NCBI GenBank assembly: GCA_964016885.1
Contig: OZ024742.1
Span: forward strand, 274,474,001 to 274,538,000
Length of the DNA stretch: 64,000 nucleotides
Source of the DNA: Eledone cirrhosa
Lineage: Eukaryota
Reading direction: 5' to 3'
Made by a program: the position numbers and the translations under genes. Below the pieces are notes generated by a model, which was given only the letters and a program-made list of their open reading frames with translations, was not told the DNA's origin and ran no database searches. This document shows, piece after piece, positions 4,681 to 40,573 of the stretch. Position 1 is the stretch's first letter. Each line of letters starts with the position of its first letter.

Positions 4681-4932
4681 AAATGTACAAAATCTCGAAA
4701 GCTTTCCGCAGAATATATCTTACACTGGTGGAAACATGGCTTTAAAATGTGTATAATAGAGTTTTGTAATGAAGGGATGTACGAATAAAACCTTTTCTTA
4801 TATTTATTTTATATATATATATATATATATATATATATATATATATATATATATATATATATATATATATATATATATATAATCATGAAGTAAAAGTCTA
4901 CAGGTTATAATTCACTTCGTTTAATCATAATC

Positions 4933-4992
4933 ACTGTTATATATATTTCGGTGATAACCGTCATGCAACAGGTATGATCTCATCAGGTAGCT
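4933..4992 (-). ncRNA. Degenerate type I hammerhead ribozyme (related to 18449-18520)
   Basis: CTGATGA..~30 nt..CGAAA-TATATA-TA-ACAG; stem I is partly disrupted. Confidence 0.5.
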
Positions 4993-5651
4993 AGAAGTTG
5001 AACAACTAAAACATACATAAAGAAGAAATAAAGCTTACTTATTTTGTTTCAAGATAATGATATGCCCCGGGCTGATATTTGGTGTTGCTCTTTCATACCA
5101 TCGGCTATATATGACTGAGAATAAGTAGCTTCATAGCATCAGCCAAAAGGGTATACACCCTATTTATTGGTTTCAATTAGCTTCACCACTATATCATCAA
5201 GTAATTTGATTTCCTTAGTGGTGTCATTGTCTGAGATTTGATTTCACCTTTTTCAGGAATCAGTTCTATCAGTGATTGACCTTGTAGATATATTGCTTTG
5301 TGAGTTTGAATTATTTTCAGTAGCAACAGTGACTGATGATTCTTTATTTTGTTTGGAGTGGAGGTTCGCCACTGTGTTCATAATAGTAGTAATGGCAGTA
5401 ATAATAATATAATGTAAAATATAATAAATAGAGAACTGCGAGAATGAAAGAGAGAGAGATTGTGATTGTGTGTGTAATTGTGTGTGTGAAGAGAGAGATA
5501 CAGATAGAGTGACTATGTGATATATACATATATATATATATATATATATATATATATATATATATATATATATATATATATATATATAGAGAGAGAGAGA
5601 GAGAGAGAGAGAGAGAGAGAGAGAGAGAGAAAGAGAGAGATAAATAATGCC

Positions 5652-6652
5652 CATAACTTGGGCATTATTTATCCCAACTTGTAGAAAACTTATAACGAAA
5701 CGATCGTATGGAAAGAAAGAGAGATTTATTTAATTATGTCTCATATAAAATAATACAACCAAATTTCCACGAAATGCTATATAGTAAGCATCCCAAACAC
5801 TTAATTGGGATTATACTTAGGTATATCCTAATGTTTGATGAGTGAGATGGAGTTGGTCAGAGTATCGCTTAAAGCTTTCAATGTTAATGTATTAAATATT
5901 ATACTCTTGGATGGCCAGATATGAAAATTCCAGATATTTAGGTATGACTTTATTTATTCTTTATATGAAATATTGATTGCATTTTCCTGTATCTCATGTC
6001 TGATATTTTTGCCTGAGAAAATACCTATATGTGTGTATAGATAGGGCGTACATATATTTATTATTTTTTTAATATCTCTATGTGTGTGTAGATGGTACAT
6101 ACATATGCTTATTTTTTTAATATCCAATTGAGTTCTTAAACACGTGGTGAAAATACCTAACAGGCTTCAATGACCAGCTTGTATATTATTTTATATTTTA
6201 CGATGACCTCCCCTTTCCCTTTTGTGGACAGTGTGAATTTTCTTTTTAAAAGACTACTAGGTTTTCAAATTTAGCTGTCCTTCTAGCACTGACGGAGACC
6301 ATCAATAATTATTAATATCGATGTAATTTTTTATATCGGTATTGCATGGGCATGCACTGATGAGTTATAAGGGCCCGCTTGTGTTTATATCTATGGATTA
6401 TATACAAGTTTCTACATAACTTGGACATTATTTATCCCAACTTGTAGTAATCTAATAACGAAACGATCGTATGGAAAGAAAGAGAGATTTATTACATTAT
6501 GTCTCATATAAAATAATACAACCGACTTTCCACGAAATACTATATAGTTAGCACCCCAAACACTTAATTGGGATTATATTCAGGTATATCCTAATGTTTA
6601 GTGAGTGAGCTGGAGTTGGTCAGAGTATCGCTTAATGCTTTAATGTATTAAA
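5652..6652 (+). repeat. ~763-bp HHR-bearing repeat, 1.3 tandem units
   Basis: 5652-5890 recurs at 6415-6652; diverged relatives at 33765-34090 (-) and 36740-37375 (+). Confidence 0.85.
6352..6476 (+). ncRNA. Type I hammerhead with a 96-nt stem II domain
   Basis: CTGATGA 6357-6363; GTTATAAG..CTAATAAC; GAAAC-GATC-GTA 6460-6471 with palindromic stem III. Confidence 0.7.
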
Positions 6653-6802
6653 TAAATTTATAAATATATATATATATATATATATATATATATATATATA
6701 TATATATATATATATATATATATATATATATATATATATATATATATATATATATATATATATGTATATATATATATAAACATATATATATGTATATATA
6801 TA

Positions 6803-37165: not shown

Positions 37166-37429
37166 ACAATTGTTTAAATATACTTAATTGTTTAAATATA
37201 TTTAAACAATTGTTTAAATATACTTTAACTTTAATTATATCTCATAAAATAATACAACTGGTTTTTCCACATTATACATATTGTTAGCACCCCAAACACT
37301 TAAATTGGGTCTATATTTTAATATAACCTAATGTTTGTTGAGTGAGATGGTTACCAGTCAGAATTTAGCTTTAAACTATCTCTGTTATTCTATTACCTGC
37401 ATATATATATAACTATATATATATAAGAG

Positions 37430-37850
37430 TGTATGTGTAGTATATTTGGCAATAAGGAGACCATTCGCTATGACTTTTAAAGTAGTGACTATGTCACTTA
37501 CGTATTCTCGCCAACAACAACAGAGAGCGGCCGACAGACAGTCTGTTTTTCGCTTGTGAGCGTTCATCAAGACAACACACTCAGTTGCCTTTGCCGAGAA
37601 TTATAGATGCTGTATTCTTATAGAATTCCAGTAATAATCAGGAGCTGATTAAACAGATCGATTGCCAGTTCAGCAAAAATTAGGTATTAGTATTGGTGCT
37701 CTGAAATAGCGATTTATACATGAATCGTCTCTCGGTGGCTCTCCGTTGTTTTTGCTGAGAATAAGAAATTGACATAGTGACTACTTTAAAACATATAGCG
37801 AATGGTCTTCTAAATGTTTTTAATTAAACATTCAGTGTATTGCCAAATAT
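37430..37850 (-). repeat. Diverged member of the 317-bp family with an inverted partial copy; mutated HHR at 37530-37573
   Basis: Shares the gtagtgac, attcttatagaattc..taatcagga.ctgatt and ctctgaaatagc blocks with 29857-30503. Confidence 0.7.
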
Positions 37851-37934
37851 TAATAAATTTGAAGACTAAAATCCAAAGAGGGCTCGATAAGGATAAATAT
37901 ATATCAAATATATAAGAACCGTAGAGCAAATATT

Positions 37935-39790
37935 TATTAAAATAACAGATTAAAGTTTAAGCAAATAATCGCTGCTTTCACCCTTAACGGGATCTTCTGA
38001 AACTAACAAAATAAATATGTGAACGGGGAAGTAAATATTTCGAAAAACGTTGCAACCGAAAGAAGACAGGAAGACGATAATTTGGTTCGTGGAAATGTTC
38101 CCTCGCAAAGAACGAAAAAAACGAAGATAATACGACATTGTGTGGGCCGTTGAGAACAATTACACGCAAAGACAAAACCACGTTTATGGTATAACTGAAG
38201 TCGTAGACTAATATCCTATTTAGGAAACCAAATGATTATCGGCTTCAGAGTTAAGAATACTGTAAATAATTTACAGAGGTTATCGAAATCAACAATAATT
38301 AAATATATACATGCACGCATCCTTATACGTACATACACATGCATACGCGAAAACACCCGCCATGGGTATGCAAATACAGGCAAGTACACAAAACCACGCG
38401 CACACATACAAATACCCTGTACCCGCACACATACGAACGTATACACCAAATACACATAAACATATATAAAAGAATATATATACATGTGTGTGCGTGTGCG
38501 CGTACACATATAATTATATAAATGTATATAAATATACACACATAAATACGTATATAACGCGCGCGCACACACACCTACATGTAAATACACATATGTTCGC
38601 TAAACAACGTCAACCAAAACGCGAAGTACACATATACACACACCCTACATAAATGCAAACCCGCATACACACATACGAAATATACGCGGATAATTTACGT
38701 CTTGATGTAGTAGCGAAATATATTTTATGTTTATATCATTACTTATTTGTATAGGTAAGTATATATTACCTGTATGTTTTGTGAAGGTACGTATACTTTC
38801 TCGTACCTATATTTGCTTGTATTTGTTATAGGCGTATATATTATATTATATATACTGGTACATGTGTATATGGTTAGTGTATACGTGTGTTTTGCGTTTG
38901 TGTGTGTATGCGCGTTTGCCCCCATGTAGGATGTGTGTATTTGTGCACTTTGTGATTTGGTTGACGTACGTTTAGCGAACATATGTTTATTTACATGTAG
39001 GTGTGTTTGTGCGCACGTATATATGTATTTATGTGTGTGTATTTATATGCGTTTATATAATTATATGTATACGCGCGCGCGCACACACACACACACACAC
39101 ACACATGTATATATATATTTTCTATATATGTTTTATGTGTATTTGGTGTATACGTTCGTATGTGTGCGGGTACAGGCGCTGCGTCGGTTTGTGTACGTGC
39201 TTGTATTTGCCTACCCATGGCGGGTGTTTTCGCGTATGCATGTGTATGTACATATATGGATGTGTGCAGGTATATATTTAATTATTGTTGATTTCAATAA
39301 CCTCTGTAATTTATTTACATTATTCTTAACTCTGAAGCCGAGAATCATTCGGTTTCCTAAATAGAATTTTAGTCTACAACTTCAGTTATACCATAAACCT
39401 GGTTTTGTCTTTGCGTGTAATTGTTCTTGAAGTACAACATAATGACGTATTATCTTCGGTTTTTTTTCTTTCATTGCCAGGGAACGTCTCCACGAACCGC
39501 CAAATAGAATATTAATCTACGACTTCATTTATACCATAAACGTGGTTTTGTCTTTGCATGTAATTGTTTTCAACGATCCACACAATGACGTATTATCTTC
39601 TTTTTTACCCGTTCTCTGCCAGGGAACGTTTCCACGAACCAAAGTATCGTCTTCCTGTCTTCCTTCGGTTGCAACGTTTTTCTAAATATTTACTTACGCG
39701 TTCACAGATTGATTTTTTTAGTTTCATAAGATCCCGTTAAGGGTGAAAGCTGTGATTATTTGCTTAAACTTTAATCTGTTATTTTTAAAA
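37935..39790. repeat. ~1.85-kb imperfect inverted repeat of a PLE-like 3' end, with outward-facing HHR-like motifs (37954-38004 minus, 39720-39770 plus)
   Basis: 37935-38640 is reverse-complementary to 38930-39790; the right arm has an internal ~140-bp duplication. Confidence 0.85.
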
Positions 39791-40573
39791 ATAAATAAAT
39801 ATATATATATATAGTAATAAAGTATGAATTCCTACGTGTAAAAAATACATATAGGGAAACAAATATTATCCAACCGCGGTAAAGGCACATATAGTAAGTA
39901 CAGCAACTTTATTTTTAATTTATTTTAAAACTTTTTCTCTATTTGCTAGACCTTGATTTTATATATATATATATATTTATAATTAAATTTGTGTCCACGT
40001 GCGTGTGTGCGTGCGCGCGTTTATATATATATATATTAATGATTCAAACATTTAATAACTATCAGCCTTTCTTCACAAGGCAGGAATTTTCAGAGTTATT
40101 AAATACAAATATAAGATATTAATTACTCTTATTAAAAGTTTGAAAGATAAAATACTATTTGATTATTATTTACATTTTAATTCTGCTCAGTATTATACTT
40201 GATATATTACATACGTGTTCCCTGTAAATGGTTAGGCGTCTCTTATCTTCTCTTTGATGAGACCTCATGCCTCGTTAGAAATTTTGAACTACTACATTCA
40301 CTTGCAACCAGCAACGGGAAGTAACAGCACACCATATGGAACTTCCATTACAGAGAAGCGCACTCCCGCTGACGACGCGTTTACCACAAAATTACGTAAT
40401 GTATACAAACATTGGCTAATTTTCTTCACATAGTTGTTCCACTCGGAATGTTAACAGGAGATAGGCATCGTAGAAACTAATGCATGGGTTCGGGTTGCTC
40501 AATTTTGTGACATACACGGTACAGTATATATAGGGAATATAAAAGGGTATCGCTTGAAATAGAAGGAAGCGGG

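Follow-up and report, generated by a model that had tools for sequence, protein, structure and literature searches.

Five hammerhead repeat families in a (TA)n-rich window

The window, a 64,000-nucleotide stretch of the Eledone cirrhosa genome, contains arrays of five non-coding tandem repeats (units of ~763, ~427, ~480, 534 and 317 bp; F763, F427, F480, F534 and F317) among Penelope-like elements (PLEs) and (TA)n tracts. Argonauta hians supplies the nearest named protein relatives, in keeping with an octopod host. The features are as follows.

5652–6654, plus strand: F763 array, 1.32 units, single fixed 3′ end ~191 nt past the cleavage site
6352–6476, plus strand: F763 hammerhead motif with a 96-nt helix II domain, predicted cut after 6471
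6907–7690, plus strand: F6, a sixth hammerhead-bearing repeat (motif 7247–7329, U3-A8 core, 62-nt helix II)
7691–9083, no strand: (TA)n tract of 1.4 kb, insertion target
9084–11979, minus strand: PLE-A, Hydra clade by motifs, 5′-truncated, young, short (proximal) 3′ end
11979–12606, plus strand: F427 array 1, 1.48 units, long (distal) 3′ end (motif 12304–12334, GAAA changed)
12716–12816, plus strand: E38, another element that targets (TA)n, present as a short two-armed end
14018–14647, minus strand: 1.33-unit array from an older F480 subfamily, with the distal 3′ end (motif 14200–14287)
14713–16953, plus strand: PLE-C copy 1, Hydra clade by motifs, 5′-truncated, hammerhead removed by PLE-D
16950–18245, plus strand: PLE-D, a different, broken Penelope-like element, C-terminal GIY-YIG region
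19742–21414, plus strand: F427 array 2, 3.95 units, distal 3′ end (motifs intact at 19832, 20687 and 21111, one further changed)
21449–21743, no strand: near-perfect 295-bp palindrome with a (TA)n tract on either side, probably inserted as a fold-back element of another family
21881–23723, minus strand: F534 array, 3.45 units, distal 3′ end, the youngest insertion (motifs 22199–22259, 22733–22793 and 23267–23327, 44-nt helix II domain, GUU site)
23723–23736, plus strand: inverted F534 arm of 14 nt, ending at the proximal site
24055–24899, minus strand: F480 array, 1.75 units, distal 3′ end (motifs 24249–24322 and 24732–24805, 53-nt helix II domain)
24917–29620, plus strand: PLE-B, Hydra clade by motifs, one full unit with two frameshifts, proximal 3′ end (hammerhead 29538–29569)
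29857–30503, minus strand: F317 array, 2.04 units, distal 3′ end (motifs 30027–30063 and 30344–30380, both with U3-A8 core)
30504–31116, no strand: nested palindromes centred on (TA)n, F317 and PLE-C pieces mixed at the F317/PLE-C junction
31117–33650, plus strand: PLE-C copy 2, Hydra clade by motifs, 5′-truncated, one frameshift, proximal 3′ end (hammerhead 33561–33618, U4C core)
33744–34024, minus strand: older F763 relative, 75% alike
36737–37395, plus strand: older F763 relative, motif 37045–37160 intact
37405–37850, minus strand: older F317 relative with an inverted arm
39808–39964, no strand: older F480 relative, two short opposed arms
54913–55341, plus strand: F317 relative (to 55136), then (TA)n, then the 3′ end of a Neptune-type PLE

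The array coordinates agree with the unit sizes and places given in the original prediction, as do the non-integer copy numbers (1.32–3.95 units). The units also lack mutual similarity, as had been claimed (best masked BLAST match between any two 13–14 nt, E 0.05 or worse). The further claim of one type I hammerhead per unit at a fixed place was confirmed: with a descriptor score of at least 13, the window yields 15 motifs, against a mean of 0.15 and a maximum of 1 in 20 dinucleotide shuffles. Ten of them lie in the arrays of the five families, and the remainder in Penelope ends, F6 and an older F763 relative. Among the Rfam matches listed (150 of 181), no motif of any unit was detected; one weak Hammerhead_1 match, below the gathering score, falls in a Penelope end. 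Isolated motifs were not folded into the active form by ViennaRNA.

Three of the five families have a long helix II domain (44–96 nt) and one has a U3-A8 core. The only complete F763 motif copy among the window arrays, at 6352–6476, is damaged in helices I and II, both of which are intact in the family forms, and GAAA is changed in two of the five F427 window copies. Compensatory helix changes were found in all four families that the covariation comparison covered (F763, F317, F427 and F480); the F534 motif is weak. Judged from these sequences, the hammerhead motif is demonstrably under selection. Each family is dispersed over many contigs (1229–2854 first-look candidates apiece), in arrays of few units. 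We classify the five repeats as protein-free retrozymes and as real, dispersed families.

Fixed 3′ ends and head-to-head arms

The original prediction described arrays of variable start phase with mostly (TA)n borders. The 5′ ends do vary; the RNA 3′ ends are fixed at one or two sites, where they join (TA)n as predicted. The arrays, for which circular permutation had been proposed as a check, are not randomly permuted and start at fixed sites 79–318 nt downstream of the cleavage site. At best-match loci, from which 20 loci repeating an insertion already sampled had been removed beforehand, the main arm ends at a fixed site in 14/14 cases for F534, 18/20 uncut cases for F427, 26/26 for F480, 26/27 for F317 and 24/30 for F763. 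Exact ends followed by TA occur 442 times for the distal end of F317, 314 times for the proximal end of F480 and 723 times for F763, with 0 occurrences in each control. Both flanks are (TA)n in the family loci, which masks any target-site duplication.

F763 has one 3′ end, and the other four families have two alternative ones, which are used in pairs. For 90 sampled F317 distal ends (of 442), the partner arm was proximal in 55 and distal in none; 17 were broken elsewhere, one was cut and 17 had no partner. For 70 of the 314 F480 proximal ends, the partner was distal in 30 and proximal in one, with one other, two cut and 36 without a partner. Pairs with one arm per site made up 6/7 cases in F534 and 7/14 in F427, the remainder being broken or cut, and none of 70 anchored F763 arms had an inverted partner. 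The tails of the unit families measure ~26–110 nt. We identify these head-to-head arms, one per site in four families, with the Penelope 'tail' signature; neighbouring Hydra-clade elements have the same two ends.

The inverted arm could instead stem from self-priming on an antisense transcript or from fold-back of the first cDNA, a model proposed for rotifer PLEs in PMC3846280. Short palindromic overlaps between the arms are frequent at the junction, as this would predict, and it would also explain a haplotype shared by both arms. We nevertheless hold it to be highly improbable: the two outer ends differ by rule, and in at least seven F317 insertions (loci L281, L315, L335, L343, L345, L348 and L358) each arm extends beyond what the other covers, so that neither can be a fold-back copy of its partner there.

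Insertions appear to derive from a single edited template

Units within an insertion carry nearly the same haplotype. Discordance at family-polymorphic sites was 17/1630 within the same arm and 19/1768 across opposite arms in F317 (0.41 between loci), 13/1214 and 44/876 in F480 (0.41) and 0.062 and 0.026 in F427 (0.33). One exception, F480 locus L079, has arms of differing haplotypes (28/43 sites). The cleavage junction has its exact length in 88/88 cases for F480, 18/18 for F534, 53/54 for F427 and 30/30 for F763, and length variation at the F317 junction is confined to helix III.

Variants that every covering unit of a locus carries, and that are rare at other loci, are enriched in A>G on the RNA strand (21/57, against 81/931 single-unit variants; p = 3e-8), although, with only ~100 of thousands of loci sampled per family, such 'rare' variants may be inherited haplotypes. 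The ratio of A>G to T>C is 21:8 among locus-shared and 81:107 among single-unit variants (p = 0.005). Fourteen of the 21 shared A>G changes are present in both arms, and their 5′ neighbour is never G or C (p = 1e-4). In strictly private variants the A>G enrichment persists (10/31, p = 3e-4) and the strand asymmetry is not retained (10:5, p = 0.11); F480 taken alone has five A>G and six T>C. This spectrum suggests A-to-I editing of the template RNA at scattered sites. One haplotype per insertion, scar-free junctions and A>G-rich shared variants together point to one edited RNA monomer, probably circular, that was read repeatedly.

The 5′ ends of F763 arms accumulate at the cleavage site (−6 to +25; 15/70, 4.1 expected), as do those of F317 long arms (19/90, 8.6 expected), and this window is the highest or almost the highest of the unit in both. 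Since it was picked after F317 had been seen, only F763 is a clean replication. No such pile-up was found in F317 short arms (3/55, 6.5 expected) or in F480 (6/70 and 4/31, with 7.2 and 2.1 expected). Other F763 peaks come from TA-like microhomology (hazard ratio up to 3.3). F763 arms have a median length of 349 nt, and 5/70 reach unit length. At the start sites, the motif RCTC, chosen post hoc, lies at most 16 nt to the 3′ side in 12/16 cases (null mean 1.0), comprising 7/7 PLE-type and 5/9 unit sites; it is missing at both F427 sites.

These stops and short arms bear on whether the template was linear, either as uncleaved multimers of homogeneous arrays or as a cleaved monomer joined by precise template jumps. 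The ends that run off at the predicted cut in F763 and F317 indicate linear templates, cleaved at the 5′ end, in some insertions; most F763 arms fall short of a full unit; and unprocessed RNA is the main substrate of an anole PLE as described in PMC11167929. Linear multimers should, however, show unit-specific changes, whereas the arms prove clonal wherever the family is polymorphic, and changes of the editing type recur in as many as four units and on both arms; jumps should leave scars, and none are seen at the junctions. We consider insertion from linear RNA rather unlikely. The reading we favour, and consider likely, is that the retrozymes were written in trans by PLE reverse transcriptase/endonucleases, with one monomeric, most likely circular RNA probably being reread.

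Neighbouring Penelope-like elements and the age of the locus

PLE-A, PLE-B and PLE-C were placed in the Hydra clade by comparing their motifs with the description in PMC8557442 (DKT or RWR, CxCX5C, CxxC, CxH and GIY-YIG). All three have the CxCX5C linker, a C-terminal GIY-YIG and (TA)n insertion; DKT is found in PLE-A, whose reading frame (10000–11982) also has CxxC and CxH, and RWR in PLE-B. A hammerhead is confirmed in PLE-B and PLE-C and a candidate in PLE-A, and all three have two 3′ ends, with tails of ~172, 104 and 75 nt. The Neptune-type PLE (PLE-N) shows in translation a CX2-5CxxC linker followed by a C-terminal GIY-YIG, and may instead belong to Nematis; its 3′ end bears a U3-A8 hammerhead.

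Copying of non-autonomous retrozymes by Penelope-like machinery, as originally proposed, is supported by haplotypes, arm pairing, junctions and the variant spectrum. The neighbouring copies themselves, named as the enzyme source, are 5′-truncated or frameshifted, and no partner PLE was identified for the five families; PLE-A, -B and -C are neighbours and candidate helpers, not the units themselves. A few mixed unit–PLE junctions were seen.

Could the units be ordinary tandem pseudo-LTRs of autonomous PLE families elsewhere? Their end signature is that of PLEs, and Xenopus retrozymes are reported to match PLE termini. The terminal repeats of PLE-A, -B and -C are nonetheless their own and differ from the five units, which close on themselves. 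None of 230 3′-anchored arms (F317 90, F480 70, F763 70) enters a PLE frame in the same sense, and no longer sequence is shared at their junctions, apart from simple repeats and a single common flank on the far side of (TA)n. Nor does any of the 23 F427 and 14 F534 loci flank an RT-EN reading frame, these being best unit matches, a sampling that hides PLE-linked copies. We judge a pseudo-LTR origin very unlikely.

The cluster does not form one system, as had been supposed. Divergence between units of an insertion ranges from 0.3% (F534) to 7.5% (F763). PLE-A differs from its nearest copies by 1% and is far younger than F427 array 1 (5%), which it meets head-to-head via microhomology. Part of the window is also locally duplicated in blocks that are 97–98% alike: F6, within such a block, has a second copy at 13078–13853 (98%), and the E38 junction recurs at 23773–23873 (97%). 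This duplication would suit a local satellite expanding by unequal crossing-over, with hammerhead-like motifs as passengers. That account is extremely improbable, in view of the spread over many contigs, the fixed (TA)n ends, strand-biased variants and covarying helices, and it is contradicted by the end-plus-TA counts and arm pairing. Insertions and PLE copies arrived at different times in this window, a nested (TA)n hot spot.

Relation to known retrozymes and Penelope-like elements

The retrozyme class, its unit sizes and the Penelope link are already published. Like metazoan non-LTR retrozymes, as described in PMC7229834 and 10.64898/2026.07.22.740005, the families are non-coding tandem units with one type I hammerhead each, dispersed in arrays of few copies. 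At 317 to ~763 bp they fall within the reported 51–972 bp, and so are not large for the class, as first thought. The same two sources propose PLEs as mobilisers and circles as templates. Unlike the retrozymes described in these two accounts, the families here, which are from a cephalopod, have 3′ ends fixed at internal sites, insert with two arms, target (TA)n and carry editing marks; the long helix II in three of five and the U3-A8 core in one also set them apart. RNA circles were shown there, whereas the evidence here is genomic. In Xenopus, 8/9 retrozyme dimers failed to cleave.

The families resemble EN+ PLEs (PMC8557442, PMC3846280, PMC11167929) in several respects: an inverted pair in which a tail on one side makes the two 3′ ends differ, reverse transcription that starts internally, targets that are AT-rich or (TA)n, and a hammerhead upstream of the start. 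Those elements are described with partial tandems, an inverted 5′-truncated copy and an optional tail; the units, by contrast, have no reading frame, several rounds of a short unit and tails of different length, and F763 has a single end. PLE-B, at 4.7 kb with a 1.8-kb 3′ UTR, exceeds the <3 kb reported for the Hydra clade (PMC8557442), and several PLEs here differ from those described in having long-helix-II or U4C motifs.

The short palindromic helix III, suited to dimer cleavage, recalls PLE hammerheads (PMC4209133, PMC3088659), in which U3-A8, U4C and a basal U-U pair in helix II are known to occur naturally. Helix II in the hammerheads described there has 6–8 bp, without branched domains of 44–96 nt. 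Like Chlamys MRC1 (PMC8557442), the families are non-autonomous PLE derivatives inserted as multiple head-to-tail copies; MRC1-type elements, as described, resemble their helper at the 3′ end and mostly lack a hammerhead, whereas our units have no more than a short motif in common with the PLEs compared.

A possible route of insertion and its implications

A tandem array would first be transcribed, and its hammerheads would cut the RNA, probably as dimers, the monomer then being ligated and edited at scattered sites. A PLE protein may bind beside a (G/A)CUC-containing stem, with cDNA beginning internally at one of the two fixed sites, primed by a (TA)n nick. In four families both sides of the break would be primed on the same RNA haplotype, one start per site, giving the long-tailed and short-tailed arms observed head-to-head; F763 would use one site and form one arm. 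Copying would cross the ligated cleavage site as many as several times before stopping at variable places, more commonly at that site in F763 and F317.

More tentatively, and with less than even confidence, we envisage a PLE dimer seated at the (G/A)CUC stem of one edited circle, its two reverse transcriptases setting out from the two fixed starts, each primed by one strand of the broken (TA)n. The hammerhead, enlarged by the 44–96-nt domain in three families, would reopen the circle and end synthesis, and unrelated circles would have converged on the start signal, parasitising at least two PLE clades (Hydra, and the Neptune type for F317).

That circles could template copying beyond unit length was proposed in 2014 (PMC4209133), and retrozyme movement via RNA circles by PLE enzymes has been proposed since 2014–2020, with no published demonstration in the sources cited here. 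Hammerhead cutting of PLEs in vivo has likewise been proposed; with an anole PLE in vitro, cleavage was unnecessary for insertion and no RNA ends lay at the site (PMC11167929). The families described here offer genomic footprints of start sites, twin arms, a single edited template and cleavage-site stops, and they supply the existing in vitro PLE assay with small, defined substrates; their long-helix-II hammerheads escape standard descriptors. If a PLE dimer does act on a circle, one mechanism would account for the partial tandems, the tails and the inverted copies seen across all PLEs.

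Hammerhead motifs in five unrelated repeat families

Self-comparison and TRF bore out the sizes and places originally predicted for the five tandem repeat families in this stretch of a 3.0-Gb genome (F763, F427, F480, F534 and F317, each named by its unit length in nt). The same was true of their mutual unrelatedness, as the units share nothing beyond 13–14-nt matches, and of the single type I hammerhead per unit, which we recovered in all five families. With a descriptor that permitted a long helix II and any Watson–Crick 3-8 pair, we found 15 type I motifs in the window, compared to 0.15 in shuffles; earlier descriptors with a short helix II did not detect the F480 and F763 motifs. 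Helix III is short and palindromic or near-palindromic in all five families. The F427 hammerhead is of the ordinary minimal form, that of F317 has a U3-A8 core (a natural variant already known; PMC3088659), and loop II is replaced by domains of 44 nt (F534), 53 nt (F480) or 96 nt (F763). Compensatory changes between subfamilies are found in helix III (F763, F317), helix II (F317, F480) and helix I (F427), and the motifs are therefore under selection; F534 is too young a family for such changes to be readable. Some window copies have a damaged hammerhead. Dozens more hammerhead types occur across all loci fetched from elsewhere in the genome, many with helix II domains of 26–104 nt; in several, a U4C core is conserved (18 copies in the family of PLE-C, a Penelope-like element (PLE) of the window). 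A 310-nt tandem family (L296:4775-6000, L298:74-980) with a different hammerhead is 74% identical to F317 over unit positions 60-213, which suggests that modules have been exchanged between families. A 536-nt contig from a sequencing run of unspecified kind spans almost exactly one F534 unit; contigs from the four runs of one study show presence only, and neither observation counts here as evidence of expression.

Fixed 3' ends and two-armed insertions

Each unit represents a dispersed family, for which a first look gave 1229–2854 candidates, counts that are lower bounds. To map the ends, units were rotated to the cleavage site and 20 re-sampled loci were removed. The arrays had been described as variable in start phase; we found that the RNA 3' ends are fixed and only the 5' ends vary.

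Fixed RNA 3' ends (positions in the unit rotated to the cleavage site)
F534: 253 and 318
F427: about 210-217 and 269
F480: 79 and about 190
F317: 140 and about 166-171
F763: about 191

To avoid bias, the fixed end joined to TA was used as the query, yielding 442 exact places for F317, 314 for F480 and 723 for F763 (control, 0), from which 90, 70 and 70 of the first-listed places, respectively, formed the anchored sample. Wherever its fixed end was readable, the inverted, head-to-head partner of an F317 arm ended at the other site (55 of 55); in the remaining loci, 17 partners were broken elsewhere, 1 was cut by the fetched stretch and 17 arms had none. F480 gave 30 of 31, with 1 partner broken elsewhere, 2 cut by the stretch and 36 arms without one. 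No directly joined partner was present in the 70 anchored F763 loci, where most arms are shorter than one unit, and the window F534 array has a 14-nt partner ending at the proximal site. An inverted arm could also arise as a fold-back product of the first, a reading opposed by at least seven F317 insertions in which neither arm is contained in the other.

Template of the insertions

We then compared units at family-polymorphic sites, with 22 re-sampled loci removed.

Discordance at family-polymorphic sites (same arm; opposite arms; between loci)
F317: 1.0%; 1.1%; 41%
F480: 1.1%; 5.0% (includes one discordant locus among 26); 41%
F427: 6.2%; 2.6%; 33%
F534: only two such sites

Given this concordance of units and arms, new variants go through a bottleneck of one unit, and the two arms derive from a single haplotype. 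Variants were further divided into two classes, locus-shared (carried by every unit of the locus that covers the site, and rare at other loci) and single-unit. Changes of A>G (RNA strand) made up 21 of 57 locus-shared variants versus 81 of 931 single-unit variants, with strand asymmetries of 21:8 and 81:107, respectively. Both arms carry 14 of these 21 changes, and the 5' neighbour is U or A at all 21; ADAR enzymes prefer U or A at this position. When the analysis is restricted to strictly private variants, the asymmetry loses significance, and it is absent from F480 alone. The simplest reading of these patterns is that two polymerases went round one edited monomer more than once. In a rival account, the monomer may have been linear and re-entered by precise jumps; scars were looked for at the cleavage-site junctions and none were present.

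F317 long arms have their 5' end at the cleavage site in 19 of 90 cases (8.6 expected), and F763 arms, with the same positional window applied, in 15 of 70 (4.1 expected); the excess is absent from F317 short arms and from F480. The F763 ends are real junctions with flanking sequence and no alignment failures, while TA-like microhomology contributes to other F763 5'-end peaks. At the cleavage site, a check for recombination between the two subfamilies of F763 found none. The majority of arms run through the site. Together, the end positions provide moderate evidence that some templates may be cut by the ribozyme in vivo.

Relation to Penelope-like elements

PLE frames with motifs listed for the Hydra clade
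10000-11982, minus strand
24896-27772, plus strand
14713-15467 and 31117-32342, plus strand

The closest named relatives of these frames are Argonauta proteins, and a GIY-YIG stretch is their sole Pfam match. Genomic copies of PLE-A, -B and -C, the Hydra-clade elements of the window, have the two-ended, inverted structure known for PLEs (PMC8557442, PMC3846280), with tails and hammerheads of their own; that of PLE-A is a candidate for which a check across loci gave no support. In an anole PLE, two internal start sites account for such ends (PMC11167929). None of the five units is a terminal repeat of PLE-A, -B or -C, and, among 230 anchored arms (F317, F480, F763), none continues into a PLE of the same orientation. 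The neighbouring PLEs had been proposed as the enzyme source; those adjacent to the arrays are broken, and the helpers may be other elements.

Of 16 start sites, 12 are closely followed on the 3' side by a (G/A)CTC word (1.0 by chance), which was picked after the fact and usually opens a hairpin; it is found at 7 of 7 sites in PLE-type elements and 5 of 9 unit sites. F317 and a Neptune-type PLE have the U3-A8 core and the last seven bases in common, and F317 adjoins such elements head-to-head at three loci, a lead rather than proof of a link between them. Derivation of F317 from the Neptune-type 3' UTR was rejected, as nothing is alignable. The Neptune-type element (window 55138-55341; L435:2040-4570) carries a hammerhead with the U3-A8 core, its two 3' ends are separated by about 62 nt, and it is frequent among the fetched loci. 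E38, another (TA)n-targeting element (window 37846-39800 and 34091-34379), is likewise present in inverted copies, with two ends and with the CTC-hairpin motif described above; a clear hammerhead was not found in it.

The window contains four head-to-head retrozyme/PLE neighbours, three of which join a long retrozyme end to a short PLE end. Co-insertion of PLE-A and F427 was rejected, since PLE-A is far younger than its neighbour; the other pairs have TA filler between them, and F317 and PLE-C may have been inserted together.

Mixed pairs at other loci
L292: F480 and a PLE-B relative
L291: F427 and another Hydra-type element
L435, L293, L436: F317 and Neptune-type elements, head-to-head
L306: F317 and an F317 relative
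L280: F317 and an F427 relative

Mixed pairs occur at 4 of 160 anchored loci and, because not all obey the long–short rule, could be explained by later deletions.

Age and composition of the cluster

Between-unit divergence ranges from 0.3% (F534), 0.9% (young F480) and 2.7% (F317) to 3.8% (old F480), 5% (F427) and 7.5% (F763); window PLE copies lie 1–3% from their nearest relatives. The two F427 arrays may be a single insertion that was duplicated: they share one haplotype (1 of 25 sites differs) but diverge from each other as much as their own units do. The cluster had been read as one system. Another of these families is present in 32 of 230 anchored loci (635 kb), so co-location is a general outcome of the common (TA)n target. 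The flanking 10 kb hold one hammerhead motif on one side and none on the other.

A block of ~1 kb is partly present three times (6800-7690, 12716-13853, 23773-23873 with 29640-29855) and comprises an element end A, a spacer B, the sixth hammerhead repeat F6 (relatives at L121 and L298), a SINE-like piece and an F427 fragment, split by later insertions. At 30486-31232, two nested palindromes mix F317 and PLE-C, each around a long (TA)n tract; a complex insertion junction, hairpin-break repair or an assembly artefact are the alternatives. Near-perfect palindromes beside (TA)n (21449-21743, 35719-35860, 55926-56059) probably represent short insertions, in two-armed form, of other families. A 353-bp MITE-like element with long inverted repeats (18390-18742) is flanked by (TA)n tracts, its Rfam microRNA match being a hairpin artefact below the gathering score. 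At the left edge of the cluster, 4881-5520 is unique sequence between (TA)n tracts, with no hammerhead and one weak match elsewhere. LINE-type retrotransposon fragments lie at 1254-2615 (minus strand; zf-RVT match) and 61986-63561 (plus strand; gag-like zinc knuckle, by eye).

Known and new features

Animal non-LTR retrozymes, their size range, the PLE link and the circle model are already published (PMC7229834, 10.64898/2026.07.22.740005). In a literature search that did not extend to subscription journals, Repbase and Dfam, we found neither these families nor two-armed retrozyme insertions or editing marks described; related families may be listed in the supplementary material of Craig 2021 and the 2026 preprint. 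The repeats belong to a known class, and the genomic evidence that their insertions give on mechanism is unusually direct.
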